The notes: generated by a model not told the origin, from the sequence alone. 17,051 bases of DNA from an uncultured Phycisphaeraceae bacterium (GCA_964609545.1 CAZSSX010000024.1:1-17051), one strand, 5' to 3'. Counted from the first letter of the stretch, positions 1,641-17,051 are shown. Numbers and translations are program-made.

Positions 1641-1667
1641 AAAAAAAATAGGCTAACATTTAGCCTA
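1641..1667 (-). terminator. Intrinsic terminator between ssb and rplI
   Basis: Plus strand AAAAAAAA-TAGGCTA-ACATT-TAGCCTA (7-bp perfect stem, 5-nt loop). On the minus strand the hairpin is followed by T8, directly 3' of the ssb stop at 1679. Confidence 0.5.
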
Positions 1668-1678
1668 CTGATGTTTGT

Positions 1679-2209
1679 TTAGAATGGGATATCTTCTTCT
1701 TCAATAGGCTGATGCGCCGGTGCGCCAGCTGTGGACCCCGATGCGTAGTCATCGTTCCCGCCAGAGGAATATCCGCCGGCCGCTGCGGAGCCTTGATTCT
1801 GCGCCGCAGGTGCTGCAGGAGCCGACGACCCCGAACCCGATGCCGATGGCGGAGGATTGCCGTTGCCTTGACCCGCTGGGCGTGCATCAATAAACTGAAA
1901 GCTCTCTAAGACAACCTTAAGTTTCGAGCGATTACCACCCTCTTTGTCTTGCCATTGATCTAATTTAAGGCGTCCCTCTACGAAAAGAGGCCGTCCTTTA
2001 GTGAGATATTGGCTCAAAAGCTCAGCTTGCCTTCCCCATGCTTCGATATCCACAAAAGTAGTTTCCTGCTGACGCTCGCCGCTTTGATTTTTCCAATCAC
2101 GGTTGATGGCCATACCAATATTAGCCACCGCGGTATTGTTAGGCGTGTAACGTAATTCGGGGTCTCGCGTCAGGTTTCCCATGAGCATCACTTTGTTTAA
2201 ATTAGGCAT
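1679..2209 (-). CDS. ssb: Single-stranded DNA-binding protein SSB
   Basis: MPNLNKVMLMGNLTRDPELRYTPNNTAVANIGMAINRDW... OB-fold, then a Gly/Ser/Ala-rich flexible linker and the canonical acidic tip ...EEEDIPF. Start at internal ATG with AGAGGATAAAT upstream; the track's longer 190-aa version starts 14 codons earlier without an RBS. Confidence 0.85.
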   Translation of the reverse strand: MPNLNKVMLMGNLTRDPELRYTPNNTAVANIGMAINRDWKNQSGERQQETTFVDIEAWGRQAELLSQYLTKGRPLFVEGRLKLDQWQDKEGGNRSKLKVVLESFQFIDARPAGQGNGNPPPSASGSGSSAPAAPAAQNQGSAAAGGYSSGGNDDYASGSTAGAPAHQPIEEEDIPF

Positions 2210-2285
2210 ATTTATCCTCTGTTTCTTCGATATAAAATGAGGCCTACCCATAAAAATAGTAGGCTTTTAGAAATGGCTTATTCTA

Positions 2286-2693
2286 TTATTTAGTTGCCGG
2301 CGCAGCCGCTTCAGAAGAAGCCTCTTCAGTCACTGCGGGGGCCAATGATTCGTTGCCTTCTTTGATCGCAGCTTCTAGCTCAACTTCAGCCATATGCGTA
2401 GGGCGTGTCACCATAACGCGTAAAACAGATTCTGAAAGATTACAGTCTCGGTCTAAACCCGTTAGCTTCTCGCCATCCGCACGGAAATACGCAATCAAAT
2501 ACGTGCCTCGTTTTTGACCATCAATTTCATAAGCAAGACGGCGCTCTTCCCATTTATGTAACGTAATCACTTCAGCCTCGGCACGATCTAAAAGACCCTT
2601 CACGTGATCGATGCAATTAGTCATACCCACCGTGACCGCTTCTTGCGTCATAAGGAAAAGTGCTTCGTATAGATTCGTAGTAGTATCAGACAT
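2286..2693 (-). CDS. rpsF: 30S ribosomal protein S6
   Basis: MSDTTTNLYEALFLMTQEAV...LHKWEERRLAYEIDGQKRGTYLIAYFRADGEKL...ESVLRVMVTR matches the S6 fold pattern (YE..F...P, W..R.LAY.I). GGAG RBS 9 nt upstream of ATG. Gene order S6-SSB-L9 is the conserved cluster. Confidence 0.85.
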   Translation of the reverse strand: MSDTTTNLYEALFLMTQEAVTVGMTNCIDHVKGLLDRAEAEVITLHKWEERRLAYEIDGQKRGTYLIAYFRADGEKLTGLDRDCNLSESVLRVMVTRPTHMAEVELEAAIKEGNESLAPAVTEEASSEAAAPATK

Positions 2694-3006
2694 TTTAAAC
2701 TCCGTCTATTTTGATGCTTCGGTCAACCGACACGACGATGCTGGTCACAGGACCCAAAAAGTGGGCCGAAGTATCTTTATTGAACACAACATTCTAATTC
2801 AAATGCCCCAGAAAGGCAAAAGCATCACACAATTTATCTAAGGCACCGCACCATTGGCGTTAAATCACTATTTTAACTAGACTTGCAAACCAAGATCTTC
2901 TTCATCCAAGCCCATCTTCCCAAAAATGCCATTCCAAATTCTGATTTCCACAACGATGCCAACGTTTTTCGTAGATAATACCCAGAGACTTTAAAGGAGT
3001 ATCACG

Positions 3007-3312
3007 ATGACACACCCCAACCCATCCCCACCACCAACCACCTTAAAAATCATCTGTGTGTTTCTGGTCACAGCAGCACTCATCGCCATCTACAGCATCT
3101 ATCTAACCGGCGAAGCCCGCACCACCTCCGCCCAGATAGCCATGCAACAATTTAACGAGAATCAGCGGGACGTCTCCCGAGATTTACAGACCTACGACAC
3201 AATCAAGCAGCTTTACGAATTCTTAATCGGGCCCATCTGGTTGATCGGCGTCTGGCTCACTTTTAAAACCGAATTCAAATCACTATTTAAAAAAACAACC
3301 CATACCCCATAA
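3007..3312 (+). CDS. Small hypothetical membrane protein (Pro/Thr-rich N-terminus, two predicted TM helices)
   Basis: AAAGGAG RBS 7 nt upstream of ATG. Hydrophobic stretches IICVFLVTAALIAIYSIYL and LIGPIWLIGVWLTF. 40 bp upstream of the SPFH gene, same strand. Composition (P/T/H-rich) partly mirrors the C-rich strand bias, so coding status is moderate. Confidence 0.45.
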   Translation: MTHPNPSPPPTTLKIICVFLVTAALIAIYSIYLTGEARTTSAQIAMQQFNENQRDVSRDLQTYDTIKQLYEFLIGPIWLIGVWLTFKTEFKSLFKKTTHTP

Positions 3313-3351
3313 CCCCATAGCCATGCAAAAGCATGACAAAGGATTTTTAAA

Positions 3352-4410
3352 ATGAACAAAAAGATGACCGCTATTTTTACAACCATTGCCCTGATTACCT
3401 TTTTCGGGCTAGTCGCCATGACCGTGCTAGTCAAACCTTACGACACACCCGAATATCAAATGATCGGGAACTCCGAAACCGCATTCCTCATCGAGCTCGA
3501 AGGCAATGCTTCAGTCAAACTAGAAACCCCCAAAGATTACGAAAGCACAAAGGTCATGCAAAAACGCGTCCGCATCACCCACCTTTGGGTACAAGAAGGC
3601 AGGCTACCCAATGATGGAAAATATGTCGCCGCAGTCAAACTCATCCGAGTCGATCGCGCACCAGTGACACGAGAATGGACACCCGATGCAACCTCTGGCA
3701 CTTCCTCCAGAGACGATGCCATCTGGGTAGAATCAGCCGACTCCATCGGCTTTGCCATCGGTTTTAACTGCACCGCATTAATCGAAGAAACCTCAGCCGC
3801 CAAGTTCCTCTATCGCTACCCCTCGCAAACCAAAGCCAGCTCCAGACTAGCCAAAGTCATGGACTCCGAAATCCGCAACAAAGTCCAATCCCTAGCCGCC
3901 AACTTTGCCGCAAGATACAATCTAGACGAGCTAAGAAGCAAAAAAAATGAAATGCTCAAAGCCATCAAAGAGGCCGTCATCCCACATTTCCAATCCAAAG
4001 GCATCACCATCAGCATGATCGGCATGTACGGCGGATTCACCTACCAAAATAAAAATATCCAAAATGCCATCGACAAAGTCTTCGAAGCGCAACAAGAAAA
4101 AAATAAAGAAGCAGCACTCCTAGAAGCAATGAAAACCAAAGAAGCCAGACTCAAATCAGAAGGCGTAGCTGAAGCCAACCGAGACCGCGAAATCGCATCA
4201 GGCAAAGCAGACGCTATCAAAATCATTAACCAAGCACTCAAAGAAGCCAACTCCAACCCCATCTTTATCAAAATGAAATTGATCGAAGTCGAAAATAACC
4301 GCATCAAAAAATGGAGCGGACAAGTACCCAGAATGATCTTTAATTCAGGCGGCGGAAAAAACAACACCGGCTTCGTACCCCTCCTACAAATACCCACAGA
4401 TATGCCATAA
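3352..4410 (+). CDS. SPFH/Band-7 (stomatin/HflK/C/flotillin-like) membrane protein
   Basis: N-terminal TM (AIFTTIALITFFGLVAMTVLV). Central region with the SPFH-like pattern (…LAKVMDSEIRNKVQSLAANFAARYNLDELRSKKNEMLKAIKEAVIPHFQSKGITISMIGMYGGFTYQN…). Then an Ala/Glu/Lys-rich coiled coil (EAQQEKNKEAALLEAMKTKEARLKSEGVAEANRDREIASGKADAIKIINQAL) typical of the HflK/C-flotillin C-terminus. AAAGGA RBS 9 nt upstream. Confidence 0.55.
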   Translation: MNKKMTAIFTTIALITFFGLVAMTVLVKPYDTPEYQMIGNSETAFLIELEGNASVKLETPKDYESTKVMQKRVRITHLWVQEGRLPNDGKYVAAVKLIRVDRAPVTREWTPDATSGTSSRDDAIWVESADSIGFAIGFNCTALIEETSAAKFLYRYPSQTKASSRLAKVMDSEIRNKVQSLAANFAARYNLDELRSKKNEMLKAIKEAVIPHFQSKGITISMIGMYGGFTYQNKNIQNAIDKVFEAQQEKNKEAALLEAMKTKEARLKSEGVAEANRDREIASGKADAIKIINQALKEANSNPIFIKMKLIEVENNRIKKWSGQVPRMIFNSGGGKNNTGFVPLLQIPTDMP

Positions 4411-4436
4411 CCTAAAACAGCAATACATCCCACAAT

Positions 4437-4474
4437 AAAAAGCGAGGGCGCCTCACAGCGTCCCCGCTTTTTTA
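4437..4474 (+). terminator. Rho-independent terminator after the SPFH gene
   Basis: AAAA-AGCGAGGGCGC-CTCACA-GCGTCCCCGCT-TTTTTT. 11-bp GC-rich stem with 1 mismatch and 1 G·U pair, 6-nt loop, T6 tail, starting 27 bp after the stop codon. Confidence 0.6.
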
Positions 4475-4587
4475 CGATATACTGTGCCCAGCAAACCAAA
4501 CACTTAACCCATACCACCCCTGCTTGACCGCCGACCAACCCCTTGCCGTCACCCTATTTTGAATTTATTTTTTTTAAAAGAGCATCC

Positions 4588-5250
4588 ATGAAACCTACCA
4601 TTTTAATCCCACTTCTTTTTGGCGTAATGTTTTCATACCTCGGCGTAAAACATCTCAACTTTTATTTACACACACAAGCCACCCCACAAACCCTCAGCCT
4701 AGCCGACTTAGAATCCCAAGGCTACAGCAACAATGCCCATCTCATACTCACCGATTTTTCCATGAAATTAACCAACCCAGTCTACAAAGAAAAATCTGAA
4801 AGCAACCACATCGCAGATTTTTCCATCCCCCTAATCTCCACCCAAAGCCAGTATTACCGAACACTCAAGCAGATCCTTCAAACCCACCCCATCCGCGAAA
4901 ACACCTTAAATATCACAAGCCCAAAAAAATTCCGCGTACTCCTCTTAAACCCCGCCATCAACAGCAAAGACCAAGCAACAAAATTTATCCAAAATCACCA
5001 ACACCAACAGCTACAAGGCATCATCGTCAATGATATCTATGACCTACCCAATGCCCAGCGCAAACGCTACCAAGAAGCATACCCCCAGCAGGATATGACA
5101 GACATCCTCCTGTTTTCAGTCGGATACCAACCCCCATCGGGCATCTTCGCCGCCGGCTCCTTAGCCCTGAGCGCAATCAGTTGGACCCTCTGTTTGTATT
5201 TTATTTTCCGTAAGAAACAACAGCCTTATCTCAATACCCCTCTAAGCTAA
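4588..5250 (+). CDS. Hypothetical bitopic/two-TM membrane protein (Gln/His-rich central region)
   Basis: ORF-track start at 4543 is a TTG; the first ATG (4588, MKPTILIPLLFGVMFSYLGV) begins directly with a TM helix. A second hydrophobic segment lies near the C-terminus (IFAAGSLALSAISWTLCLYFIF). Weak RBS (AAAAGAG). No recognisable family; not NfeD-like. Confidence 0.45.
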   Translation: MKPTILIPLLFGVMFSYLGVKHLNFYLHTQATPQTLSLADLESQGYSNNAHLILTDFSMKLTNPVYKEKSESNHIADFSIPLISTQSQYYRTLKQILQTHPIRENTLNITSPKKFRVLLLNPAINSKDQATKFIQNHQHQQLQGIIVNDIYDLPNAQRKRYQEAYPQQDMTDILLFSVGYQPPSGIFAAGSLALSAISWTLCLYFIFRKKQQPYLNTPLS

Positions 5251-5292
5251 TTCCCACCCAATACCCCGCCGCCTTCATACAAATCACAAGCA

Positions 5293-5328
5293 TAAAAAAA
5301 CCAAGACCGATCCGATCTTGGTTTTTTT
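5293..5328. terminator. Bidirectional intrinsic terminator between convergent genes
   Basis: AAAAAAA-CCAAGACCG-ATC-CGATCTTGG-TTTTTTT. 9-bp stem with 1 mismatch, flanked by an A-run and a T-run, lying between the stop of the + gene (5250) and the stop of the - gene (5350). Confidence 0.6.
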
Positions 5329-5349
5329 ATGATCACTTATTCTGTTTTT

Positions 5350-6315
5350 TTAAGCCCCAGCTTTAGCCGCTTTTTTCGCCGCCTTGGCAGCTGCTTTTTC
5401 GACCAATTCTTGTATTTCCGCCCGCGATTTAGGCGCTGCTTTCTTCGCCGCCTTTTCCGCTTGCTTAACCGCCTTGGCTTGCTTCTCCGCTAAAACTTCA
5501 TCCCACCCATCAATCGACGCCTTGGCCTGAGGCAAATAATCTTCCGCGGGCATCAGCGAGGGGAACCACGCCCGATCCCACTCCAAACAAATATAACCAT
5601 CATAGCCAATCCCCTTGAGCCTCTTCAACGTATTTTCGACACCCGCCGTGCCTTGACCAATCGGCAAAAACCCGCTGCCCCTACCAATCACCGAATCCTT
5701 AATTTTTGCAATCTTAATCCTGCTATTAAGCGTCGTAATCCCCACCCAGCCGCCCTTATCATGCGCATCATAAATCGCACTATTCAATGCATTCCAGCAG
5801 ATCCCAACCATCGGGTGATCAATAATATCGAGCATCCACCACCACTCTTTGGCCTGCGTAAAACTCCCCGCATTTTCAAAAAGAAGCTGCACACCATACT
5901 CCCCCGCCACTTCCGCCAACGGCTTGGCATGCTCCGCTATTCGCGCGATAACCGTACGACGATTCTCCCCAGGCATAACCTCATTACCATAAATACGAAC
6001 CGCCGAACAACCAATCTCCGACGCCGTCTTAATAGATTTAATAATTCCCGACGTCGCAGCACCCAGCCGCGTCAAATCACGATGATGCAATGCATAAGAT
6101 GTACTCAAACAAATCGGCGCAATCTCCCGAGACTCAAAAAGATCCCGCACCTTAGAAGCATCGCTCAATGCCGGATCACAAGCCAGTGGGCTTTCCTCAC
6201 CGCCTAACGTACGCAGCTCAACCCCAGCAAAACCAAATGCCTTGGCTTTGTCAACGACCTGCTCCAGGGTCCATTCGGGGCAAGCGACGGTGCTAAATGC
6301 AAGCTTGGTAGACAT
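5350..6315 (-). CDS. Sugar-phosphate isomerase/epimerase (xylose-isomerase-like TIM barrel) with C-terminal Lys/Ala-rich histone-H1-like tail
   Basis: From internal ATG: MSTKLAFSTVACPEWTLEQVVDKAKAFGFAGVELR...YGVQLLFEN...GICWNALNS...GYDGYICLEWD, the characteristic AP-endonuclease-2/xylose-isomerase-like TIM pattern. Final ~45 aa AEKQAKAVKQAEKAAKKAAPKSRAEIQELVEKAAAKAAKKAAKAGA are AKKA-repeat-like. The longer 366-aa version starting at 6450 adds 45 aa with no signal peptide or RBS. Confidence 0.75.
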   Translation of the reverse strand: MSTKLAFSTVACPEWTLEQVVDKAKAFGFAGVELRTLGGEESPLACDPALSDASKVRDLFESREIAPICLSTSYALHHRDLTRLGAATSGIIKSIKTASEIGCSAVRIYGNEVMPGENRRTVIARIAEHAKPLAEVAGEYGVQLLFENAGSFTQAKEWWWMLDIIDHPMVGICWNALNSAIYDAHDKGGWVGITTLNSRIKIAKIKDSVIGRGSGFLPIGQGTAGVENTLKRLKGIGYDGYICLEWDRAWFPSLMPAEDYLPQAKASIDGWDEVLAEKQAKAVKQAEKAAKKAAPKSRAEIQELVEKAAAKAAKKAAKAGA

Positions 6316-6482
6316 AAGCGGTATATCCTTTACTAGGCGCAGCAAGCTGCGATGATCTCTATCAGAAACAAGAAGCCTAATTCTAACCTCCTCCCTTGAA
6401 ATTGCCAAAACTGACCCGCCAAACTCCCCATAAAATTCACCGCAACTCACTTTTCCCCCGCGCCAAGCCCACCTCCCCCACC

Positions 6483-6511
6483 TTGCGACCCTAGCCCCTT
6501 CATATTATAAA
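6483..6511 (+). promoter_or_regulatory. Candidate sigma70-type promoter for the HIT gene
   Basis: TTGCGA-N17-TATAAA, about 45 nt upstream of the ATG at 6557. Sequence inspection only. Confidence 0.25.
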
Positions 6512-6556
6512 AGCCCTAACTTTGTGTTACCTCATCTTTTCTAAAAAGGCTCAAAT

Positions 6557-6988
6557 ATGAATCACCCTACCGATCCAGATTGTATTTTTTGCAAAATCAT
6601 CGCCGGACAAATCCCCGCCTACCAACTTTACCAAGACCCCCACGTCCTAGCCTTTCTAGACGTCGGGCCCATCGCCCCCGGACACACCTTAATCATACCC
6701 AAAGCCCATTACCCCACCCTCGATACAATGCCCCCCAACCTCGCCGCACATTGCATCAAAATCGCACCGACCCTCATCAAAGCCATCCAAAAAGCCACCG
6801 GCGCAACAGCCCTCAACCTCCTACAAAACAACGGCGCCATCGCCGGACAAGCCGTCAACCACGTACACTTTCATCTCATCCCACGCACAAAAAATGACGC
6901 ATTTAAATACACCTGGCCAGCACAAAACCTAAAAGAAACCCAAGGATTAGCCCTACTCGAAAAAATTAAAAAACATCTCAACACTTAA
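6557..6988 (+). CDS. HIT-family (histidine triad) nucleotide hydrolase
   Basis: CIFCKII zinc-ribbon-like N-terminus and histidine triad HVHFHLIP (HxHxHxx). Length 143 aa, typical of HINT proteins. Confidence 0.85.
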   Translation: MNHPTDPDCIFCKIIAGQIPAYQLYQDPHVLAFLDVGPIAPGHTLIIPKAHYPTLDTMPPNLAAHCIKIAPTLIKAIQKATGATALNLLQNNGAIAGQAVNHVHFHLIPRTKNDAFKYTWPAQNLKETQGLALLEKIKKHLNT

Positions 6989-7012
6989 AAACAAACCCAA
7001 ATCGCTCAACCC

Positions 7013-7048
7013 AAAAAAAAAACACGCAATACATCGCGTGCCTTTTTA
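7013..7048. terminator. Weak bidirectional terminator between convergent HIT and sulfatase genes
   Basis: A10-CACGC-AATACATC-GCGTG-CCTTTTT. 5-bp stem, A-run upstream and T5 downstream. Confidence 0.35.
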
Positions 7049-7082
7049 AATTTGTAAATTCAAAATCGTTTATCCCATCGCC

Positions 7083-8828
7083 TTACTTAAAAGGCGTTTT
7101 AGCCGTAGGAATATCCACACGCTTACCCGTCGCCCGAACGATCGGCAACCCCGCATCAGCTGCATCAAGCCAACGGAATAATTCCCGGCGAAGCTTAATC
7201 GCCAGCTTCGGCTTCTTACTCGCAAGATTATGCTTCTCCCCAACATCCACAGAAACATGATAAAGCTCCGTCCGCGGATCATAACCCTTCTCATCACTCA
7301 CACCATCACCATAAAAATAAATCAATTTCCAATCACCCTTACGCATCGCGCTATAAGGCTCAATCCCCGCACCCACACCAACATCACGATACCATTGATG
7401 CGGATAATGCCAAAACAAAGGCTTCTTCCGTGTGAATGATTTTCGACGCAATAAAGAACCTAAATCTTGCCCATCTCTTTGAATTTTTAATAACGGATTT
7501 TTCACCCCAGCGATAGATAAAATCGTAGGAAAAATATCATCACCATGCACAGGCTCCGCACAAGTCGTCCCCGGAACAATCGACAAACGAGAATTAATCG
7601 GCTTCTGCTTTTTAAGTTGACCCGCCCACGCAACGATCATCGGAATCCGCGTACCCCCATCATAGCCGCTCCCCTTCCCGCTTAACGCAGGTGCATTATG
7701 ATAATCACGCTTGTATCGCACACGAATCCCACTATTAAGTAATGCCTTGCCCGCGTTACTCCGAGCATGATTAGAAAGCCCGCCGTTGTCTGATACAAAA
7801 AGAATAATCGTATTTTCAGCGATACTATCCGCAGTATTACCATCCCCGTTAGGATCCCTCAACGTACTTAAAATCGCACCCAAGGAAGCATCCATCCCCG
7901 TAAGCATCGAGCCATAATCACTCTCCACTTTAGGCCTGCCATCACGATAAAATTTGAGATATTTCTCAGGCCCAGCAGCGATTTGCGTATGCACCGCAAA
8001 CTGCGCCATATTCATAAAAAAAGGAACACCTTCCGCCGCAGCATCTCGAATCACACCCCGAGCTTTAATCGTAATCGCATCAGTCAAATACTCGCCCTCA
8101 GGACGATCCTCCAACCCAGGATACATCTTCGCATATTTACCAAGCCAAGGAGAATACCAACCGCCCCAAGGCCCGCCCCCATGACTCCCCGCAATATTAA
8201 TATCAAATCCCAAATTCGTAGGGTCAGCCCCTAAAGCTTGACCAAAGTGAGCCTTACCAATATGAATCGTCCGATACCCAGCACCTCGAAGCAACGTAGG
8301 TAACGTCACAAAACCGTCACCAGGCTGCAAACCCACAGATCGCCATTCAGGCGAAAACAAATACCTATTCTTACTCCGACCATGACCAATCCAATCACTC
8401 ACACCAGAACGAGCAGGATTCTGACCCGTCATAAAACTCATCCGCGTCGGTGAACAAACCGGATGCGATGCATAAGCATTGGTAAACTTCATCCCACGGC
8501 TAGCCAACGTTTCCATATGAGGCGTATGGTAAATATTATTCCATACCGTCCGCTTCTTACCAAAACTAACCGAAGTATCCTGCCAACCCATATCATCAAC
8601 AACAAATAAAATAATATTAGGCTTCACCCCTCGAGCAATCACACCCTTACCCCCAGATCGATTCGTCACTTCCATTGGCCTAGCACTGACACCCGAATCT
8701 CCCCCAGCCAATCCATCCCTTCCCTCTGATATATCTGACACTTCAACAGTCGCACAAGCCCCAATAACAAAACAAATAAAGCCTAAACAAAAGGTCTCAA
8801 ATACAGAAAATAATCTACCAATAATCAT
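7083..8828 (-). CDS. Secreted sulfatase (arylsulfatase/choline-sulfatase family; formylglycine-dependent)
   Basis: N-terminal signal peptide (MIIGRLFSVFETFCLGFICFVIGACA). NIILFVVDDMGWQD metal-binding start, sulfatase signature VCSPTRMSFMTGQNPARSGV (C-x-P-x-R) and a GKAHFG-like downstream motif; 581 aa. Confidence 0.85.
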   Translation of the reverse strand: MIIGRLFSVFETFCLGFICFVIGACATVEVSDISEGRDGLAGGDSGVSARPMEVTNRSGGKGVIARGVKPNIILFVVDDMGWQDTSVSFGKKRTVWNNIYHTPHMETLASRGMKFTNAYASHPVCSPTRMSFMTGQNPARSGVSDWIGHGRSKNRYLFSPEWRSVGLQPGDGFVTLPTLLRGAGYRTIHIGKAHFGQALGADPTNLGFDINIAGSHGGGPWGGWYSPWLGKYAKMYPGLEDRPEGEYLTDAITIKARGVIRDAAAEGVPFFMNMAQFAVHTQIAAGPEKYLKFYRDGRPKVESDYGSMLTGMDASLGAILSTLRDPNGDGNTADSIAENTIILFVSDNGGLSNHARSNAGKALLNSGIRVRYKRDYHNAPALSGKGSGYDGGTRIPMIVAWAGQLKKQKPINSRLSIVPGTTCAEPVHGDDIFPTILSIAGVKNPLLKIQRDGQDLGSLLRRKSFTRKKPLFWHYPHQWYRDVGVGAGIEPYSAMRKGDWKLIYFYGDGVSDEKGYDPRTELYHVSVDVGEKHNLASKKPKLAIKLRRELFRWLDAADAGLPIVRATGKRVDIPTAKTPFK

Positions 8829-8869
8829 GGGAATCGCCTTATCAATGAATAAAAAAACAACGAAACCCC

Positions 8870-8898
8870 ATTATATCCAAAACACAAAGCCAAGCCAA
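8870..8898 (-). promoter_or_regulatory. Candidate sigma70-type promoter for sulfatase gene
   Basis: On the minus strand: TTGGCT-N17-TATAAT (perfect -10), about 35 nt upstream of the ATG at 8828. Confidence 0.3.
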
Positions 8899-9092
8899 CA
8901 TCAACGATTTAAAATGCCTCATCAAAATAACTTATACTGCTGGACCTCTAATAAAAAATGCCTCGCATATAGAGAGAAAGATGCCCCCCCGAAAATGCGT
9001 CGCCATTGATCAACCAAATGTAAAACAAAATCCGCTTGCTTAACATCCTCCGATGAGATGATGAAGTACGCCTATATTTATTTAAATGCATT

Positions 9093-9191
9093 TGAGCCCT
9101 TCTATCAACCTCAAATTTCTTTTGAAAATGTACGATTCAAGATTTGCAATGAGGGTTGTTTTTGAAATTATGAGGTTGATAGAAAGGCTCA
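9093..9191. repeat. Long imperfect inverted repeat (about 27-bp arms, about 45-nt spacer) in the intergenic region
   Basis: Left arm TGAGCCCTTCTATCAACCTCAAATTTC (9093-9119). Right arm GAAATTATGAGGTTGATAGAAAGGCTCA (9164-9191). 26 of 27 positions pair, with a single-nt bulge. The spacer holds two TTTTGAAA(A/T)T copies. Located 200 bp 3' of the 660-aa gene's stop, on the transcribed strand. Confidence 0.6.
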
Positions 9192-9392
9192 TTTAAGACT
9201 AACCCGCAAGCGCCAGCACACATCGGCCGCTACTTCCAATGCAACAATCAAACAACCCCATGCAACGCCCGATGGACACACGCCACATAGAACAGCCCAT
9301 CATAAAATCACCAACCCCAACCCAGCGGCATCAACAATTAACCAATCCACCTTAAACAGCTACCCTCATCTCAAAGACCACTACGCTTCATA

Positions 9393-11375
9393 TCAATCAA
9401 AGCTAGGTGGCGCAATATAGCCTCCACCACTACCAGATAATGCCCGGCGTGGCCTACCAGATGACCGATACCCACCCCTTGAACGACCCTTTTTTTCTTC
9501 CGTCAAACGATTATAAAGAACATAGTATTCCGGATCACTCGTCGATGGACGACTCTTAACACGAATCACACCCCCCATCGCATCCGAGGTATACACAAGC
9601 CCCAGCCCTTGCTCCGTGAGTGCCGTATCAATCGCAACCGCACCGACATTAAAATCAACGATAATCTTTTTGTTCGGCGTGACAGTGCCTCGACTCGGAT
9701 TAGCAACATACATTTTCACAGCCTTAGGCTCACCGATCGTTTCACCAGGATAAACTCGGAAATTTTCACGATAATATTTCCCGTGATGCATACGAATAAC
9801 TTCCACCGCAGCTGAAGAATCTTTAGATGCTTGCTTCACAAAAAAGGTCCGAATCGGATAAACATACACAGCTGCAGACCACGCAGAAGGATCCGTTAAT
9901 AAATAAAGCTTATCCCCGATTTCTGCTTTCTGCTCGGGGTTCACTTTCTCACGATGATAAAGAGGATTTAACAACGCAATCCGAATCCGATACCGGTAAT
10001 AATGACCAGGATCCATACTCATATCATGAGCCAAAATCTCAATCGTTTGCTCTGCTTGTCTCCGCTTTTCCTCCTCTGTCAAGTCCTCCCCGATCGGGTC
10101 CTCTACCTGAACATCTCCCCCATTACTAGCATCAGCCTCGTGATCAATCGCTTCCCGATCAGATTCCAATCTACTGACTTTATCTTCCAATACCGTCATC
10201 TTTTCAATCAACCGCTCAAGCTTGGTTTTTCGTTTCCGAGCATTTCTAGAAGGCCTATTACTGTCAGGCAAAATACTCCCGCCAAGACCTTTATCTGTTT
10301 TCCGCTTAGACAGCGAACGAGGTTTACGCCCAGACTTCAACTCTCTATCTCTACGCGCCTGCTCTCGTTTTTCCTCACGATCAATGCTCTTCTGAAGCTT
10401 GGCTTTTTCTTTTAAAACACTCTCAAGTAATTTAGCATTTTTGGTTAACCGCTTGCGTTGCTCTAAAGTATAAACACGGCTATCAACTTCCAACGGATTC
10501 ACAAACGGCCTAGAACGATTGCTCAACGGCGGAAGTTCCACATACGCATTCTCTTTTTCATTCTGGATCGCCATATTAACTACAAAATCAGACTGCTGAG
10601 GTGTCAAATCCCCCAAATCACTAAACATCATCTCCTGATTAGGCAAATGCTCAACCACTTCCGTCGATCCCCATTGACCCGTTGCCGGATCTTTTTTCTG
10701 ACGCTCAAGCACCCAACCCGTCACCACTTCTCGCTTATATAAAACTGGAAATTTCACCCGAGAGTAAGCTTGACGCATCTTGTATTTTTGATATTTCGCC
10801 GTAAAATGCAATACAGAAAGATGCCTCATCCTCTCATCCGGATCCTGCTTACGCATCAGCGCAGTATACTCCTCAGATAATTCCGTAGCCTTATTTAAAT
10901 TAGCGTTACTACGCGGATCCAAAGTCAACACCCGCTTAGCCAGCCATGCCGAAAATTCTCGCTGAGATTTAAAATCATAATAATCAGCAGAACACTTAAT
11001 CTGCGTAGCCACAGGAAAAAGGGGCATCTTAATATAGCTAATCGAGTCATTAATCTGGTGAGATTCAACACGAGGCCCCACCGCAGGAGCCAACAAAGAT
11101 GCCATCTTTTGCCCTAAACGCGTATCAAGCTTAGCCTCAAATTCCTTAGCATCCTCAAAATAACGATCCTTCCTCACACCACTAGGCAAATTATCAGCCA
11201 AAGCTTCAATCTTAATCTGCCCAGCATCCTTAATCAGCTTCTCCGTACGCTCCTGAATACTTTTTTTACTCGGAGCAAACATCAAATAAGCCGCAAAAAG
11301 AGATACGATCAGCGCCACCAATAATGCGATCTTATCACTATATTTTTCTGCAAAAGTCGCGTCTTTGTACATCAT
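9393..11375 (-). CDS. Large hypothetical bitopic membrane protein (660 aa) with Arg/Lys/Glu-rich coiled-coil region and Gly/Arg-rich C-terminal tail; third gene of the PilMN-fusion cluster
   Basis: Short cytoplasmic N-terminus followed by one TM (IALLVALIVSLFAAYLMF). About 120-aa highly charged segment (…LKEKAKLQKSIDREEKREQARRDRELKSGRKPRSLSKRKTDKG…KRKTKLERLIEKMTVLEDKVSRLESDREAIDHE…). C-terminus …KKGRSRGGYRSSGRPRRALSGSGGGYIAPPSFD. AAGAGG RBS; 98-bp gap to the upstream gene. No recognisable secretin/PilP signature by eye. Confidence 0.7.
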   Translation of the reverse strand: MMYKDATFAEKYSDKIALLVALIVSLFAAYLMFAPSKKSIQERTEKLIKDAGQIKIEALADNLPSGVRKDRYFEDAKEFEAKLDTRLGQKMASLLAPAVGPRVESHQINDSISYIKMPLFPVATQIKCSADYYDFKSQREFSAWLAKRVLTLDPRSNANLNKATELSEEYTALMRKQDPDERMRHLSVLHFTAKYQKYKMRQAYSRVKFPVLYKREVVTGWVLERQKKDPATGQWGSTEVVEHLPNQEMMFSDLGDLTPQQSDFVVNMAIQNEKENAYVELPPLSNRSRPFVNPLEVDSRVYTLEQRKRLTKNAKLLESVLKEKAKLQKSIDREEKREQARRDRELKSGRKPRSLSKRKTDKGLGGSILPDSNRPSRNARKRKTKLERLIEKMTVLEDKVSRLESDREAIDHEADASNGGDVQVEDPIGEDLTEEEKRRQAEQTIEILAHDMSMDPGHYYRYRIRIALLNPLYHREKVNPEQKAEIGDKLYLLTDPSAWSAAVYVYPIRTFFVKQASKDSSAAVEVIRMHHGKYYRENFRVYPGETIGEPKAVKMYVANPSRGTVTPNKKIIVDFNVGAVAIDTALTEQGLGLVYTSDAMGGVIRVKSRPSTSDPEYYVLYNRLTEEKKGRSRGGYRSSGRPRRALSGSGGGYIAPPSFD

Positions 11376-11473
11376 CGTTTAAGCCTCTTGTGTTAATTTT
11401 ATCAATTAAGCAATGAACCCAATTCTTGATCCATCATTTTACCAGAATCACCCCGACACTTGCCCCGCTACTA

Positions 11474-13090
11474 CTAATTATTCTTTTCTACGCCATTCAG
11501 TTCTGCGTTATATTTATCCAAAACCACCTTAGGCATATATTGATCAACCCATTCATTAAGCCACAAACTTTCAATCACCACCGTCAACTCCACCAAAGGC
11601 TTACTACCATAAACATAACCCTCAACCAATTGCTCATACAAATCCACATGCCCCATATGCATCGCGATAACCGTATTAAAATTCACCTTCGCTAATTTAT
11701 CAATAAACACAGGCACTTGCCTAGCCTCTATCACAATCGTACAAATCGTATGCTTAACCCGATAAGTCTTATTGGATTTGCGACCCGTATGAGCCAAGTG
11801 ATAATCAAGAGCCCCCTTGACATCACTGCCCACAACAGTATCGCTACGTTTATTGCGACCCCGATTAATTAACCCCGAATCATTAAAACTCGAAGAAACA
11901 TCGAAATTCCGAGGCTGCTGAAAAGTGCCACCCAACCCACCTTGCCCCGCCAAAGAACCCCCGCCAAAACCCGTAAGCGAGGGATTGCGAGGCACCCAAA
12001 GTTGAACATCACTCATTTGATCTTTCACGTTTTTTACAAGCGTAATTTCACTACCCAAACCTGTGTTATTACCAAGCCCCACATAACCCCTACCAATCCG
12101 AACCTGAACCAATTTCTTAATCGGATTCTCCCGCACAGTACTCGATGCGCTGGCCGTGACAGCTTCATTAGTCAGCCGAATCGCACGAATAATATCCTCG
12201 ATAATCCAAAGCTGTTCCTGCCACTGCCAAATCCGATCCATCCCTATTTTCTCACCACTCTTACTCTGCAGATCAAATTCAAAAGGGTAAGGCGTATTCT
12301 GAGTATTACGATCATCCACTTCAGTATTTAAAGACTGAGCCGCAATAGCACTTCGCGATCGAGTCAAGGCCTCGGGTAATTTCGTATTCGCATAAATATA
12401 AAGCGCCTCAGCACGCTTCACCAACGCAGTATGCCAAACTTTTCGCTGAGCCTCCCGACATTCTTTCTCGTCTACTTCATTCAAAGGCGAATTATCAATC
12501 TCACCATCCGTCAATTCACGCTGCTTATTACTAATAAACTCCGTCCGAGCATCGGACAGTTCCTTATAAATACGATCAACCGAAGGCGGTAATCCCCCAC
12601 GCAAATCCACCTCTAAAAATCGCTTCATCGACGCAATATAAGAAAAACGAGCCGAACGCGCCGTCGTCTCTTTATCACTACGAAACCGCTCCTTCTGATC
12701 CGCACTCATCCTGCTTTCCAAATCAATCTTATCAAATAAACCAGAAAGCATCGGCTTATGATCACCACGATTAAAACGAATCACATTCTTAGAAATTCGC
12801 CCAGAACCAGCGATACGCTCCGCTTTCCACGCTTTCCCAGCCAAAACTAAATGCTGATTCACCACAACCGAAACCGCCTCAGGAGACTCACCAGCAGCCA
12901 AAGGAGGCAGCATCACCTCACCCCGAAGACGCCTCACAATATGACGCGGCTTATCCAGTTGTTTCGCCAAGGCCTCGCGCTCCGTCCGAGCATCTAACGC
13001 CATATATAATGATGCCCCAAATAACAACACAATCACCGAGGAACTAATCGCCAAAGGGTTACCTTTAATAATCACAGAAAACTTATTCAT
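11474..13090 (-). CDS. Large hypothetical bitopic membrane protein (538 aa) with PilO/GspM-like topology, translationally coupled to the PilM-PilN fusion gene
   Basis: Its start ATG overlaps the upstream stop (ATGAATAA, 8-nt overlap at 13083-13090). N-terminal TM PLAISSSVIVLLFGASLYMAL followed by a charged helix (DARTEREALAKQLDK…), then a roughly 480-aa presumably periplasmic region including a Gly-rich stretch (SLTGFGGGSLAGQGGLGGT). Far larger than the ~200 aa of canonical PilO. Confidence 0.7.
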   Translation of the reverse strand: MNKFSVIIKGNPLAISSSVIVLLFGASLYMALDARTEREALAKQLDKPRHIVRRLRGEVMLPPLAAGESPEAVSVVVNQHLVLAGKAWKAERIAGSGRISKNVIRFNRGDHKPMLSGLFDKIDLESRMSADQKERFRSDKETTARSARFSYIASMKRFLEVDLRGGLPPSVDRIYKELSDARTEFISNKQRELTDGEIDNSPLNEVDEKECREAQRKVWHTALVKRAEALYIYANTKLPEALTRSRSAIAAQSLNTEVDDRNTQNTPYPFEFDLQSKSGEKIGMDRIWQWQEQLWIIEDIIRAIRLTNEAVTASASSTVRENPIKKLVQVRIGRGYVGLGNNTGLGSEITLVKNVKDQMSDVQLWVPRNPSLTGFGGGSLAGQGGLGGTFQQPRNFDVSSSFNDSGLINRGRNKRSDTVVGSDVKGALDYHLAHTGRKSNKTYRVKHTICTIVIEARQVPVFIDKLAKVNFNTVIAMHMGHVDLYEQLVEGYVYGSKPLVELTVVIESLWLNEWVDQYMPKVVLDKYNAELNGVEKNN

Positions 13091-15158
13091 AAACGACTCT
13101 CCTTCTCGACCGGCTCATTGCTGCCCCACCGGGCTCTTCATTTTTATCTGTCTCTGGCGCCCGAGGATCTTTCAAAACAATATAGCATTCAAAAACAATA
13201 AGCTTGTAATTACCATCTGTCTTCTCATGAAAAATCAAAGGATCTGAAACAATCAACTCCTCCAGCCTCACACCCGCCCCTTGCCCGCTTGAAGTACGCC
13301 GCCTATAAGATCGCCTCACACCCCCAGGAAGCAATCCGCCCCCAGGCAAAATACCCACGCCAGGCTGAACAAAACCCCCATTCACAGGGTTAATCTTTTT
13401 CCCATCAAGATCTAAAAATACCTTAGGAATCACTTTCAACAAAGGCAAATCAGAACCAACAATCGTATAAGGACGCCGATTGTTCTTAATCACAGATTTC
13501 AAGGGATCCATAAAATGCGTATAAAACCACTGAGATGTACTGTCCCCGGTTTCTAAACCATAAGGCGTCTTAAATTTCAAAGAAACGAAAAAACGCGGCT
13601 TACCCCCCGATTTATCAAAATCACCCGCAGACTTCGCATCTTTCCCACCATCAGCCCCACTCGGTTCAAAAGTACCCGGCAAATACTCAATCGTGGAATT
13701 AAGTAAAGTGATACTTTTTCGCTGAGCAGGCGGAATCTTTAAAATCTCATCCAAATTCCCCTCCTCAAACGCTACCTGAGTGCCTAAGTGCTTAAGCGCC
13801 GTATCCAAATCCGCTAAGAATAAAGGCAGCACCTCACGCCCCCCCAACATACTACGATAAATATCGATTTTGCCCGTCTCACCCGTCCCAATCCCATAAG
13901 CCTCATACAGCCCATGATATTTAGAAGCCTGATTGGTGTCTTTATCGACAACTTTAATCGCTTTGGCAACGTAGGCCTGATCTTGCGACAAGCCTTTCTT
14001 CTGAAAGAAAAAACCAAAAACACCCACCACCAACATCAAGCTCGCTGCAGCCAAAAAGATAGGCCCCTTGGCTTTCCAAATCCGTGACTTAATAACCGCT
14101 TTAGGCAAAATATTAGCATTGATGTATCCCAAGCCCAACCCTTGAAGCGCTAACCCGTAAGCCGTCGCCATATTGATCGCCACACCCGCGAATTCAGACT
14201 CTTGACGCCCTTCTAAGCTCGCCCGCTCATATTCCATAGGCTTAATAATTTCCATCTCAAGCTGTTTTTGCAAAAATTTACGCAAACCAGGCAACTTAAA
14301 AGTAGAACCCACGCAAATAATACGTTGCAAATCCGCATCACGATTCTGACTCTGATAAAAACCTATTGTACGCTGCAAATTTTGAACCAAATCAGAAAAC
14401 ACAGGACGCATCGCTTGAAAAATCTGCCGAGCGTATTTACTAGAACCCGCTTCTCGCTTATGCACCTCAGCTTTGGGAAAACTCAAATTAAATTGATCCA
14501 CCAACGCATCCGTAAAATGATTGCCCCCTAACGAAAGTGTCCGCAACCAAACCCCACCCTGATCCGCGATAATCACATCCGTTGAACTCGTCCCAATATC
14601 GACAAACACAGTACCCGGGGAATCCGCATCCAATTTTTGATCATACGTAAATGCGTTATAAACACTCAAAGGAGAAAGCGTAACACCCTCAACACGGATC
14701 CCAACATCCTGAAGATTTCGCAAAAAACCTTCCACACGAGCCCGAGTTATCGCAAAAATACCCACCTCAATATCAGGCATATCATCTTGCGAAAATACTT
14801 GATAATCCCATTCAACCTCTTCTAAAGGAAACGGAATCTGCTGCTTAGCTTCATACTGAACCATCCCCCGAATCTGCTTCTTATTCACAGGCGGTAATTT
14901 GGCAAACTTGGCGATAGCCATATTCCCAGCCACCGAAACAAAGACAGGCGCATCCGTCAGATCATGCTTGGCAAGCAGCTTTTCTAGCCCAAGCTGAATC
15001 TCTTCATCAACATCCAAGTCAGGCGTGGTCAGCACACGCTTAAACTCGACCACCTCGTGGGCGATCACCGTTACACCATCATCATCGCGTGCCAACTTCA
15101 TCGCTTTAATGGCATTAGCGCCGATATCTAGGCCCCATGCTTCGCTCATTTTCGCCAT
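13083..15158 (-). CDS. PilM-type actin-like ATPase domain fused to PilN-like TM anchor and extended periplasmic domain (GspL-like architecture, 691 aa)
   Basis: N-terminal ~345 aa carry PilM family motifs: WGLDIGANAIKAMKL, VFVSVAGNMA, KKQIRGMVQYEAKQQIPFPLEEVEWDYQV, VFVDIGTSSTDVII, LGGNHFTDALVDQFNLSFPKAEVHKRE, ICVGSTFKLPGLRKFLQKQL. This is followed by INANILPK, which resembles the conserved INLLP PilM-binding N-terminus of PilN. Then one TM (GPIFLAAASLMLVVGVFGFFF) and an approximately 306-aa C-terminal region with Gly/Pro-rich and Arg-rich stretches. GGAG RBS 8 nt upstream. Confidence 0.8.
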   Translation of the reverse strand: MAKMSEAWGLDIGANAIKAMKLARDDDGVTVIAHEVVEFKRVLTTPDLDVDEEIQLGLEKLLAKHDLTDAPVFVSVAGNMAIAKFAKLPPVNKKQIRGMVQYEAKQQIPFPLEEVEWDYQVFSQDDMPDIEVGIFAITRARVEGFLRNLQDVGIRVEGVTLSPLSVYNAFTYDQKLDADSPGTVFVDIGTSSTDVIIADQGGVWLRTLSLGGNHFTDALVDQFNLSFPKAEVHKREAGSSKYARQIFQAMRPVFSDLVQNLQRTIGFYQSQNRDADLQRIICVGSTFKLPGLRKFLQKQLEMEIIKPMEYERASLEGRQESEFAGVAINMATAYGLALQGLGLGYINANILPKAVIKSRIWKAKGPIFLAAASLMLVVGVFGFFFQKKGLSQDQAYVAKAIKVVDKDTNQASKYHGLYEAYGIGTGETGKIDIYRSMLGGREVLPLFLADLDTALKHLGTQVAFEEGNLDEILKIPPAQRKSITLLNSTIEYLPGTFEPSGADGGKDAKSAGDFDKSGGKPRFFVSLKFKTPYGLETGDSTSQWFYTHFMDPLKSVIKNNRRPYTIVGSDLPLLKVIPKVFLDLDGKKINPVNGGFVQPGVGILPGGGLLPGGVRRSYRRRTSSGQGAGVRLEELIVSDPLIFHEKTDGNYKLIVFECYIVLKDPRAPETDKNEEPGGAAMSRSRRRVVYE

Positions 15159-15189
15159 TGATTACTCCTACAAATATCGTCTTATTACA

Positions 15190-15218
15190 AATATAAATGC
15201 ACTATCTTAAAGATTCAA
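15190..15218 (-). promoter_or_regulatory. Candidate sigma70-type promoter for the PilMN-fusion operon
   Basis: On the minus strand: TTGAAT-N17-TATATT, about 30 nt upstream of the ATG at 15158. Sequence inspection only. Confidence 0.3.
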
Positions 15219-15303
15219 TCGATCCTGCTGATCTCATCATCCATTTTTCTTTTGAAGTCATAGCATAACATAACACGCCCCAACATGCACCACCCACAAA
15301 CAT

Positions 15304-15329
15304 CATCCCCAAACACCATCCCCAAACAC
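15304..15329. repeat. Perfect 13-bp tandem direct repeat (CATCCCCAAACAC x2, preceded by partial CAT) in a C/A-rich leader region
   Basis: catCATCCCCAAACAC-CATCCCCAAACAC. Lies about 90-115 bp upstream (in the transcription direction) of the candidate -35 of the PilMN-fusion operon. Confidence 0.6.
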
Positions 15330-15539
15330 ATCTCCTCCCAAATCACACGACCTACCATAAAAAATAGCTTGTCTACGCTCTAAAAGGGTCATCACATTCA
15401 AAAAAAACATCATAAAGTCCGTGCCAATCTAACGATAGACTACCTTTATTATCATAGCCCAGCCCAGCCGCCCTTAGCAACTTTTTCTCAATATTTCTAA
15501 CACATACATCGATATTTTATACCTTACCCTGAGTATGCT

Positions 15540-15893
15540 TTATAAATGCTTCGCAGCCGGGCGATATTTCAACCCCGCCTTAATCGTAAAAACAATCGCT
15601 CCACCCAAAACAAGATAAACCGTCCCCATCATAAAATAAATCGAATACCCGTACGCCATGCTCGCGTTACTCCCCGCGCCATCGTAAACGCTATCCTTGC
15701 TCATCGTAAATTCAACATTACCTTGATGAACATAAATACTCTCCCCACCCGCATCACCATCAGCCAGCGACCCTGCACAGTTCGGACACGCCGACGCAGG
15801 CTGAGCATAACACATCCCAATTAAAATCACTGCACCAATAAATAATCCCACCACATGCCTCCCAGCCATCCACTTATAATAATCTGCCATCAT
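15540..15893 (-). CDS. Small hypothetical membrane protein (N-terminal signal/TM, CPNC motif, C-terminal TM)
   Basis: Start set at the internal ATG preceded by AAGGAA. This removes the 44-bp overlap with the upstream PDZ gene that the 157-aa track ORF would have. Sequence MADYYKWMAGRHVVGLFIGAVILIGMCYAQPASA|CPNCAGSLADGDAGG…, followed by a C-terminal hydrophobic segment YSIYFMMGTVYLVLGGAIVFTI. Confidence 0.45.
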   Translation of the reverse strand: MMADYYKWMAGRHVVGLFIGAVILIGMCYAQPASACPNCAGSLADGDAGGESIYVHQGNVEFTMSKDSVYDGAGSNASMAYGYSIYFMMGTVYLVLGGAIVFTIKAGLKYRPAAKHL

Positions 15894-15969
15894 CCATTCC
15901 TTTATACATCCTCCCCCTACCACTGATCGGTCATCTCCGATCCAAAAACACCCGAAACACGCTTCTTTT

Positions 15970-16818
15970 TTAACCACCCGCATGAAGCTGATAAGCTTCC
16001 TTGGCAACATCAAAACTCAGCGCATCTGCTAAACGTCGTTTCAGCCTGCGTACCACTGATTTGTGTAACACATCACCGTTACCGCCATAGATTTTATCCC
16101 ACCCTAATGCGCTGCCATAAGCAAACGTCACTGAGATCACACGCTTGCCTCGATACACTTTCATCACAATTTTATCACCCGGTTTTCGGCCTCGCACCTT
16201 CGACGCCAGCAACTCGATCCGCGAGGCATAATCTCCTTTGATTTGAGCGCCATCAAAGACCAATATACGATCTCCCGGACGCAAAAACGCGTACGCGGGC
16301 AATCCCAGCGTGGTGCTTTTTAACTGAATCCCTTGATTTTCATATTTAGAGCCTTTCGTGAGAATATCATTTTTCCCAGCAAAAGTAATGCCTAGCATGC
16401 CATAATCGCGCTTAACTAGCGTATCGCTGACCAATCTGATTTCATCTCTAACCAAATAATGCCAAAGCACTCTTTTAATTCTGCTGCGTACTTCAAAATC
16501 ATCGCTCACGCCATAGGCTTGGACCATTTGGCTTGATTTAATCGCTTCGGATTGCATCAAAGCGTACATGGCCTCCTCGCGGACATAAAAATCTTCATCG
16601 CCAAGCTCTTTAATCACCCGAGCGATCCGCTTTTTCGCCCGCTGCGCCTCGGTCAACACTTTGGCTTGCGCCTTCACATCAGCACGGATCCCCGCTTGAT
16701 TAGCCTCAGGCTTGGCCCAGGCAGCACTTTGCCCAGCAGACATAGCCAAGCAGACGTAACTTATGATTACGACGCTAGTTGCGCCGATTTTTTTTGATTT
16801 TTTCATCGTTTTTTGCAT
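15970..16818 (-). CDS. Secreted PDZ-domain protein with HEAT-like N-terminal helix repeat
   Basis: GGAG RBS. Signal peptide MQKTMKKSKKIGATSVVIISYVCLAMSAGQSAAWA. DFYVREEAMYALMQS resembles a HEAT/PBS-lyase-type repeat. PDZ-like segment GMLGITFAGKND…GIQLKSTTLGLPAYAFLRPGDRILVFDGAQIKGDYASRIELLASKVRGRKPGDKIVMKVYRGKRVISVTF. Confidence 0.65.
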   Translation of the reverse strand: MQKTMKKSKKIGATSVVIISYVCLAMSAGQSAAWAKPEANQAGIRADVKAQAKVLTEAQRAKKRIARVIKELGDEDFYVREEAMYALMQSEAIKSSQMVQAYGVSDDFEVRSRIKRVLWHYLVRDEIRLVSDTLVKRDYGMLGITFAGKNDILTKGSKYENQGIQLKSTTLGLPAYAFLRPGDRILVFDGAQIKGDYASRIELLASKVRGRKPGDKIVMKVYRGKRVISVTFAYGSALGWDKIYGGNGDVLHKSVVRRLKRRLADALSFDVAKEAYQLHAGG

Positions 16819-17051
16819 ATTGATAGCTCCATTTTTTCGATTTTAGTTGATTTTATGCTGCGATTCTACCCGCAATAGGGATAAAATCCAAGCTTTAATC
16901 CCCAAATTCAAGATTGCAGGGGCGCGTGACTCGCTGAAGCGATGGTTGTTTTTTTCAAGATTCCATTATATTGGAAATTTCTGTTTCTTCCCGAAAAGGG
17001 CGTTTTGAAAGGCCTTGAAAGAGGGGTGAACGCGATCGAAGGGCTGTGTTA

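Follow-up and report, generated by a model that had tools for sequence, protein, structure and literature searches.

Three consecutive minus-strand genes in a 17,051-nucleotide (nt) stretch of DNA from an uncultured Phycisphaeraceae bacterium (GCA_964609545.1, CAZSSX010000024.1:1-17051; below, the window), which is part of a 19.3-kb metagenome contig, encode a PilM-like protein with a periplasmic extension (g1) and two large bitopic proteins (g2 and g3). We think it probable, at about 60%, that this trio is a single operon whose products form, in the inner membrane of a Phycisphaerae bacterium, the assembly ("alignment") subcomplex for a machine of the type IV filament class, akin to the type IV pilus (T4P) or the type II secretion system (T2SS). 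An earlier note on the same DNA had described the trio as an orphan operon and a candidate envelope-spanning apparatus of non-canonical composition. Its description was correct, since the open reading frames (ORFs), the transmembrane (TM) helices, the PilM domain, the gene overlap and the absence of partner genes have all been confirmed. Its suggestion of a novel apparatus was overstated: the layout parallels GspL-GspM-GspC and, most closely, Amuc_1101-Amuc_1100-Amuc_1099 of Akkermansia, and the trio is most likely a lineage-wide, oversized variant of the T4P/T2SS assembly platform rather than an orphan novelty. In the paper library searched, none names PilM together with Phycisphaer*.

Conservation of the operon

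The order of the three genes is kept. In a scan of one genome per GTDB species, relatives of g1 were found in at least 576 species genomes, the best 80 of which all belong to Phycisphaerae/Planctomycetota. More than 4500 protein relatives of g1 exist; the best are 610-800 amino acids (aa) long and 40-50% identical over 70-100% of the query, and the top ones, of 680-800 aa, carry the name PilM in metagenome-assembled genomes (MAGs) of Phycisphaeraceae/Planctomycetota. Related genomes were read 10 kb to either side of the trio. A g2 homolog lies directly downstream of g1 in every locus with at least 1.5 kb of downstream sequence (66/66), and a g3 homolog follows g2 in every locus with at least 4.2 kb (53/53). 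Because this order recurs in independent species genomes, it is not a chance arrangement.

A word-index (k-mer) protein search returned two relatives only for g2 and nothing beyond the query itself for g3. This result is misleading, as synteny-guided phmmer and exhaustive searches gave large families for both. For g3, exhaustive HMMER at E<=1e-3 collected 1203 clusters (50% identity), with residues 440-560 matching best; of these clusters, 236 have E values of 1e-10 or better and just 2 attain 1e-30, which marks the family as large yet quickly evolving. With a trio that is invariant across Phycisphaerae, with this many g3 clusters and with g1 relatives in so many species, an orphan operon is ruled out.

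The genes are closely packed. As the earlier note had read it, g2 begins on the stop codon of g1: the ATG overlaps the stop by 8 nt, within ATGAATAA, and the corresponding overlap is 4 nt in 51 of the 66 loci. A downstream start overlapping an upstream stop is shared with the type IVa pilus (T4aP) operon and suggests translational coupling of g1 and g2. The spacing between g2 and g3 in the window is 98 nt, and an AGGAG ribosome-binding site lies 7 nt 5' of the g1 ATG. On L003, the one closely related contig, the same trio is again followed by a sulfatase gene; its g1 is 63% identical to that of the window, its g2 45% overall (68% over the C-terminal ~106 residues alignable by BLASTP) and its g3 39%.

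Duplication of the trio does occur, since one MAG (JBBDRF01) contains two paralogous trios, L011 9471-13165 and L056 10001-16232. Identity between the two g1 proteins is 54% across the N-terminal ~490 residues, a stretch that runs from the PilM domain into the beginning of the periplasmic region; past it, they share only short motifs. This pair lends some weight to a reading of the trio as a redundant, diverged paralogue standing beside a canonical pilMNOPQ operon, or beside a full gsp operon that has L, M and C genes of its own. We regard that as very improbable: the second copy has the same long-form architecture and not a canonical one, the best 120 protein matches of g1 are all long forms of 610-800 aa, and the invariant conservation of the three genes argues for a primary role.

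The PilM domain and predicted periplasmic core of g1

TM helices were called by the Kyte-Doolittle method with a 19-residue window and a threshold of 1.6, by which each of the three proteins has exactly one strongly hydrophobic 19-residue segment (residues 367-385 of g1, 14-32 of g2 and 16-34 of g3). The ORF calls and the hydrophobicity profiles agree with the account of three consecutive minus-strand genes of 691, 538 and 660 aa with one TM helix each.

The N-terminal part of g1 matches Pfam PF11104 (PilM_2) with E 2e-33 and 116.2 bits (cutoff 27) and NCBIfam TIGR01175 (pilM) with 143.9 bits (cutoff 133), the PilM matches spanning residues 5-340. On these scores, residues 1-340 are a genuine PilM domain, as the earlier note had recognised from motifs. 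In a 26-sequence alignment of the family, the actin-fold phosphate motifs DIG (11-13) and DIGTSSTD (187-194), together with GSTFxLPG (284-291), are invariant, and the PilM domain and TM helix are followed by conserved periplasmic blocks that are split by low-complexity inserts.

Hidden Markov models (HMMs) of PilN and PilO (PF05137/PF04350) and of GspM (PF04612) gave no match at E<=1 in the window proteins, the periplasmic region of g1 included. An AlphaFold2 model of this region, built from a 22-sequence alignment, consists of helices followed by a beta, beta, alpha, beta, beta core with a predicted local distance difference test score (pLDDT) of 77-92. The domain is accordingly modelled as a ferredoxin-like fold of the PilO/GspL/GspM type, from which g1 can be read as a PilM-PilN-type fusion with a GspL-like architecture. 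In other words, the predicted structure shows g1 uniting the functions of PilM and PilN in a single polypeptide, in the manner of GspL, and the fusion proposed in the earlier note stands.

The two bitopic partners

Neither g2 nor g3 matches any Pfam or NCBIfam model even at E<=1, in keeping with the earlier observation that they lack a recognised motif. In the profile searches that the earlier note had proposed, g1 was placed with PilM, and g2 and g3 matched none of PilN, PilO, PilP or GspM. Structure prediction gave a ferredoxin-like core for g1 and, at low confidence only, a PilO-like one for g2. Confident matches of g2 or g3 to unrelated, well-characterised families, which the earlier note had named as evidence that would count against it, are absent from Pfam and NCBIfam. 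Pfam scans across all members of both families yielded nothing consistent, searches of the PDB with both family profiles returned coiled-coil and low-complexity noise only, and an all-against-all hhalign comparison of the g1 C-terminal domain with the N- and C-terminal domains of g2 and g3 revealed no internal paralogy.

The g2 protein has a short cytoplasmic N-terminus, a TM helix (nt 12995-13051), a helical region of ~250 aa and a C-terminal core. Its first 12 residues (window 13055-13090) contain a conserved cytoplasmic motif before the TM helix, M-K-x-x-L-x-W-I-K-x-N-P, in which W, K and N are found in 52, 58 and 54 of 62 family members, respectively; the window copy has I in place of W. 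The model of g2 was folded from three sequences only and is poor for that reason, with a mean pLDDT of 40 and 50-60 in the C-terminal core. The elements of this core are an alpha helix (284-311), a beta strand (324-332), a 110-aa Gly-rich loop, a beta strand (443-455), a helix and two further strands. When the model was searched with Foldseek, PilO took ranks 1-4 (probability 0.92-1.0) and Amuc_1100 came next, none of the matches having E<=0.001. At low confidence, the g2 core may thus belong to the same fold class as the g1 core, with Amuc_1100 and PilO as its nearest relatives. No PilN, PilO or GspM HMM matched any of the 62 family members at E<=1. The sole recurrent NCBIfam match of the family is Amuc_1100_fam (NF038287), which is weak and occurs in 7 of 62 members (best E 0.0012); the family consensus scores 14 bits against an equivalog cutoff of 180, over residues 6-97 only, and g2 of the window itself has no match at E<=1.

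In g3, a cytoplasmic N-terminal motif and a TM helix (nt 11274-11330) are followed by a conserved N-terminal periplasmic domain, a charged coiled-coil/low-complexity spacer (~aa 300-440), a conserved C-terminal domain (~aa 440-625, nt 9501-10058) and an Arg/Gly/Ser-rich tail. The alternating hydrophobic pattern of the C-terminal domain suggests beta structure. The motif before the TM helix (aa 8-18, window 11322-11354) is E-x-H/Y-x-E-K-I-V-L, its E being present in 46 and its K in 44 of 52 members. Neither PilP nor the homology region (HR) domain of GspC was matched in Pfam, and an HR or PDZ domain was not detected. Amuc_1099_fam (NF042425) is not matched by g3 of the window and is matched by one of the 52 family members, at E 0.028; membership of g2 in Amuc_1100_fam and of g3 in Amuc_1099_fam is rejected, as the family cutoffs are missed. 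With hhalign, the N- and C-terminal domains of g3 found nothing among Amuc_1098-1102, the probability against Amuc_1099 being <1%. A role like that of PilP, GspC or Amuc_1099 is proposed for g3 from gene position and architecture only.

Comparison with T2SS and T4P operons

The trio resembles GspL-GspM-GspC of the T2SS in having three bitopic partners, the first of which is built like GspL, with an actin-like domain in the cytoplasm, one TM helix and, as predicted, a ferredoxin-like domain in the periplasm. It differs in that the cytoplasmic domain of g1 is of the PilM type: the actin-fold phosphate motifs are kept and TIGR01175 is above cutoff, whereas the GspL families are below it (PF05134 T2SSL, 16.6 bits against 25.5; TIGR01709, 13.9 bits against 65). 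In addition, no gsp genes adjoin the trio, and neither an HR nor a PDZ domain was detected in g3.

The likeness to pilMNOPQ of the T4aP lies in the genuine PilM domain, in the PilO/PilN-type fold predicted for g1 and, less confidently, for g2, and in the overlap of g1 and g2. There are also differences. In the T4aP, PilM is soluble and pilNOPQ lie directly downstream; in g1, PilM is fused by way of a TM helix to a periplasmic region of 300 aa with a PilN-like part. Additional helical regions and low-complexity loops bring the partners to 2.5-3.5 times the usual size, and no PilN, PilO or PilP HMM matches the trio. In place of a small lipoprotein there is the 660-aa bitopic g3. Canonical pilMNOP was rejected for the fusion of PilM to a TM helix and periplasmic region and for the lack of pilQ downstream. 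A PilM-PilN fusion has a precedent in a bona fide type IV pilus operon, that of the mannose-sensitive haemagglutinin (MSHA) pilus, in which MshI occurs with MshJ and MshK; the Msh proteins are canonical in size and the secretin gene mshL comes after them. No family of the MshI type is among the NCBIfam matches at E<=1.

The Akkermansia Amuc_1101-1100-1099 cluster

The closest known system is the Amuc_1101-1100-1099 (MUL2) cluster of Akkermansia. Its locus was retrieved with an Amuc_1100 sequence, residues 31-317 of which were checked to be 100% identical to PDB 6LAD/6KNY, and each gene assignment was confirmed by NCBIfam. Amuc_1098-1102 is a pilus-biogenesis/MUL2 locus that is needed for mucin acquisition and conserved in Verrucomicrobiales, and Amuc_1100 is structurally PilO/PilN-like (bioRxiv 10.64898/2025.12.30.696933; PMC13174399; PMC5332112). 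As in the trio, a PilM-like protein with a TM helix and periplasmic extension is followed by two bitopic proteins in the same order, and both systems belong to the Planctomycetes-Verrucomicrobia-Chlamydiae (PVC) superphylum. Short motifs before the TM helices are also alike: NWITDNKP in Amuc_1100 recalls W-I-K-x-N-P in g2, and QNYDKILL in Amuc_1099 recalls E-K-I-V-L in g3.

The top NCBIfam match of g1 is Amuc_1101_fam (NF045709), at 200.5 bits; the equivalog cutoff is 650, and the authentic Amuc_1101 protein reaches 753.6 bits. The alignment covers model positions 1-404 of 608, and the periplasmic parts are therefore not alignable. The g1 family matches Amuc_1101 itself with an hhalign probability of 99.8% and a BLASTP E of 2e-31 (27% identity), over the PilM domain and TM helix only. 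For the partners, hhalign gave E 0.018 for g2 against Amuc_1100 and 0.0087 for g3 against Amuc_1099, in both cases over the N-terminal motif and TM helix only and not significant, and the crossed pairs were weaker (0.34 and 0.062). With the verified Amuc_1100 sequence and with an alignment of 55 Akkermansia sequences, g2 was again matched over this N-terminal stretch only, and without significance. The trio differs from the Akkermansia cluster in being far longer (691/538/660 aa against 612/317/337 aa), in belonging to Planctomycetota rather than Verrucomicrobiota, in the failure of all three proteins to reach the curated family cutoffs, in periplasmic parts that cannot be aligned by sequence, and in having neither a secretin nor an Amuc_1102-like gene linked to it in ~65 loci.

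One might go further and take the trio for the Planctomycetota orthologue of the Akkermansia/Verrucomicrobiales MUL2 module, with the same biological role: a pilus-like apparatus that attaches to complex (sulfated) glycans and acquires them, as opposed to a T4P or T2SS of the generic kind. Several observations would fit: Amuc_1101_fam is the best-scoring family for g1, Amuc_1100 is a top structural match of g2, the two systems agree in gene order and in their bitopic proteins, the cognate hhalign pairs score slightly better than the crossed ones, a sulfatase gene lies 3' of the trio in both the window and L003, and MUL2 is required for mucin acquisition (PMC13174399). We nevertheless consider orthology unlikely. 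Every NCBIfam cutoff is missed (200 against 650 for g1, 14 against 180 for the g2 consensus and a single E of 0.028 for g3), the g1 match ends at model position 404 of 608 and leaves the periplasmic parts unaligned, no Amuc_1102- or Amuc_1098-like gene is linked, and the sulfatase adjoins the trio in the two closest relatives only. Sulfatases are, moreover, very abundant in Planctomycetota.

Absence of linked machine genes

The earlier note had seen no pilin, ATPase, platform or secretin gene nearby, and this was upheld and extended. None of these genes is present in the window, and all reading frames of the window and of L001, a longer copy of the contig, are free of GFTLIE-like prepilin N-termini. 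The 10 kb on either side of ~65 related loci contained no gene for a secretin, PilB/GspE, PilC/GspF or a conserved pilin, nor is a secretin or pilin gene linked to the 53 complete trio loci. Clustering of neighbouring ORFs for a conserved fourth gene (secretin, ATPase or pilin) revealed none that recurs, and ORFs with a prepilin motif were seen in only 3 of 65 loci.

These absences weigh against an assembly platform of the T4P/T2SS class, the more so as the flanks of the trio consist of variable housekeeping genes, while pilQ nearly always comes after canonical pilMNOP. So do the low confidence of the g2 model and its lack of Foldseek matches at E<=0.001. For g3, no sequence or profile method provides a tie to any family. 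Taken together, g2 and g3 showed no link to PilO, PilN, GspM, PilP, GspC or Amuc_1100/1099 beyond the N-terminal motif and TM helix (E 0.01-0.03).

From the same facts it may be argued that a PilM/PilN/PilO-derived scaffold has been repurposed into a complex that spans the envelope by itself and has lost its service to a filament of the pilus or secretion kind, with possible roles in division or envelope organisation in the FtsZ-less Planctomycetota, or in membrane tethering across the wide periplasm. PilM is a member of the FtsA/actin family, and the FtsA Pfam domain also matches g1 (E 4e-10). The invariance and near-universality of the trio in the class, its position among housekeeping genes and never beside T4P/T2SS genes, and the long coiled-coil spacer of g3 without detectable PilP/GspC similarity would all suit such a scaffold. 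Even so, this reading seems fairly unlikely to us: PilM models outscore FtsA by 144 to 26 bits in NCBIfam, the periplasmic folds predicted for g1 and g2 are of the T4P/T2SS assembly protein type, in Akkermansia the system most closely related has a secretin gene and a pilin-like gene physically linked to it, and a role in division has no positive evidence. A further idea, which we hold to be quite improbable, is that the trio is the inner-membrane core of a PVC-specific, T4P-derived apparatus without a classical linked secretin and pilus, its oversized spacers suiting the enlarged periplasm. Such an apparatus may underlie "selfish" polysaccharide capture and uptake and the crateriform-structure fibres in Planctomycetota, or may be a stand-alone trans-periplasmic scaffold with an envelope or division role in FtsZ-less bacteria.

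A working model

If the trio is an assembly platform, as we prefer, its parts may act as follows. The periplasmic cores of g1 and g2 would heterodimerise in the manner of PilN-PilO or GspL-GspM, and the PilM domain of g1 would dock a cytoplasmic ATPase or platform protein. The conserved cytoplasmic N-termini, W-I-K-x-N-P in g2 and E-x-H-x-E-K-I-x-L in g3, could touch the PilM domain or one another. The g3 protein, in the position of PilP, GspC or Amuc_1099, would connect to an outer-membrane partner through its charged coiled-coil spacer and putatively beta-rich C-terminal domain. The added helical stretches, the coiled coil and the loops rich in Gly, which bring the proteins to 2.5-3.5 times canonical size, might be spacers for a wide planctomycetal periplasm; an enlarged periplasm in Planctomycetes is mentioned in a passage of PMC11131199 that cites Boedeker 2017. 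The ATPase, platform protein, pilins and secretin would be encoded elsewhere in the genome.

Genomic surroundings

The coordinates of the trio and its domains are collected in the following table, together with the Akkermansia proteins used for comparison.

Features of the trio in the window and of the Akkermansia comparison locus
Feature	Window position	Strand	Size or residues	Description
g1	13083..15158	-	691 aa	ORF; PilM-like protein fused to TM helix and periplasmic domain (GspL-like architecture)
g1 cytoplasmic domain	14139..15158	-	aa 1-340	PilM/actin-like ATPase-fold domain; PilM_2 over residues 9-339
g1 TM helix	14004..14060	-	aa 367-385	Single; Kyte-Doolittle 2.54, only segment >1.6
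g1 periplasmic region	13086..13973	-	aa 396-691	Predicted helices, then alpha-beta-beta-alpha-beta-beta ferredoxin-like core, interrupted by two low-complexity loops
g2	11474..13090	-	538 aa	ORF; bitopic; no Pfam/NCBIfam match
g2 C-terminal core	11498..12241	-	aa 284-531	Predicted alpha-beta-(110-aa Gly-rich loop)-beta-alpha-beta-beta; PilO/Amuc_1100-like at low confidence
g3	9393..11375	-	660 aa	ORF; bitopic; no Pfam/NCBIfam match
Non-coding region upstream of g1	15159..15539	-	381 nt	Probable operon promoter region
Amuc_1102			242 aa	Pilin-like
Amuc_1101			612 aa	PilM-like, TM helix and periplasmic part
Amuc_1100			317 aa	Bitopic
Amuc_1099			337 aa	Bitopic
Amuc_1098			907 aa	Secretin

In the region upstream of g1, two sigma-70-like matches of 9/12 each were seen, which is no more than expected by chance; promoter and terminator scans of the window gave nothing above chance, and an Rfam scan of the window found no family. 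The same region contains a 13-nt tandem repeat (CAAACACATCCC-like) in 2.8 copies (15297-15332). At the other end of the trio, 564 nt separate the stop codon of g3 from the start of the sulfatase gene and hold a 26-nt inverted repeat (9093-9118 and 9166-9191, 88% complementary, 47 nt between the arms). This repeat may form a terminator-like hairpin or act as a regulatory element; the scan called no T-tract terminator at 9093-9191.

The remaining ORFs of the window encode a PDZ protein, a sulfatase, a HIT protein, a xylose-isomerase-like TIM barrel, an SPFH protein and S6/SSB/L9. The PDZ-domain protein is secreted and lies 5' of the trio (15970-16818), and a PDZ protein is found upstream in L003 as well (2889-4247). 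PDZ domains occur in GspC proteins; this neighbour is not kept across the wider trio family. The sulfatase gene is 3' of the trio on the same strand (7083-8828, and 13479-15098 in L003) and is not found in the other loci; past it, L003 carries a beta-helix/GH141-like gene and then a second sulfatase. The TIM-barrel protein (AP_endonuc_2, 5350-6450) ends in a Lys/Ala-rich, histone-H1-like tail of ~45 aa. The ribosomal cluster S6-SSB-L9 (1031-2693, minus strand) does not include rpsR (S18), a usual member, since the ssb-rplI gap is only 84 nt. Most window genes are on the minus strand. GC skew is below zero in every 1-kb window of 1-17051 (-0.08 to -0.47), and cumulative GC skew consequently drops monotonically.

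Significance

The families of g2 and g3 are present in essentially every sampled Phycisphaerae genome, have no model in Pfam or NCBIfam and so far carry only the annotation "hypothetical"; their adjacency to a PilM-PilN fusion gives them a testable role. The trio shows no coupling to genes for a secretin, ATPase or pilin in any locus examined. The comparison also links a Planctomycetota operon to the Akkermansia Amuc_1099-1101/MUL2 module, which is relevant to mucin foraging and includes the immunomodulatory protein Amuc_1100. This link between Planctomycetota and Akkermansia suggests that this module represents an ancient variant of the T4P/T2SS assembly platform, one that extends throughout the PVC superphylum.

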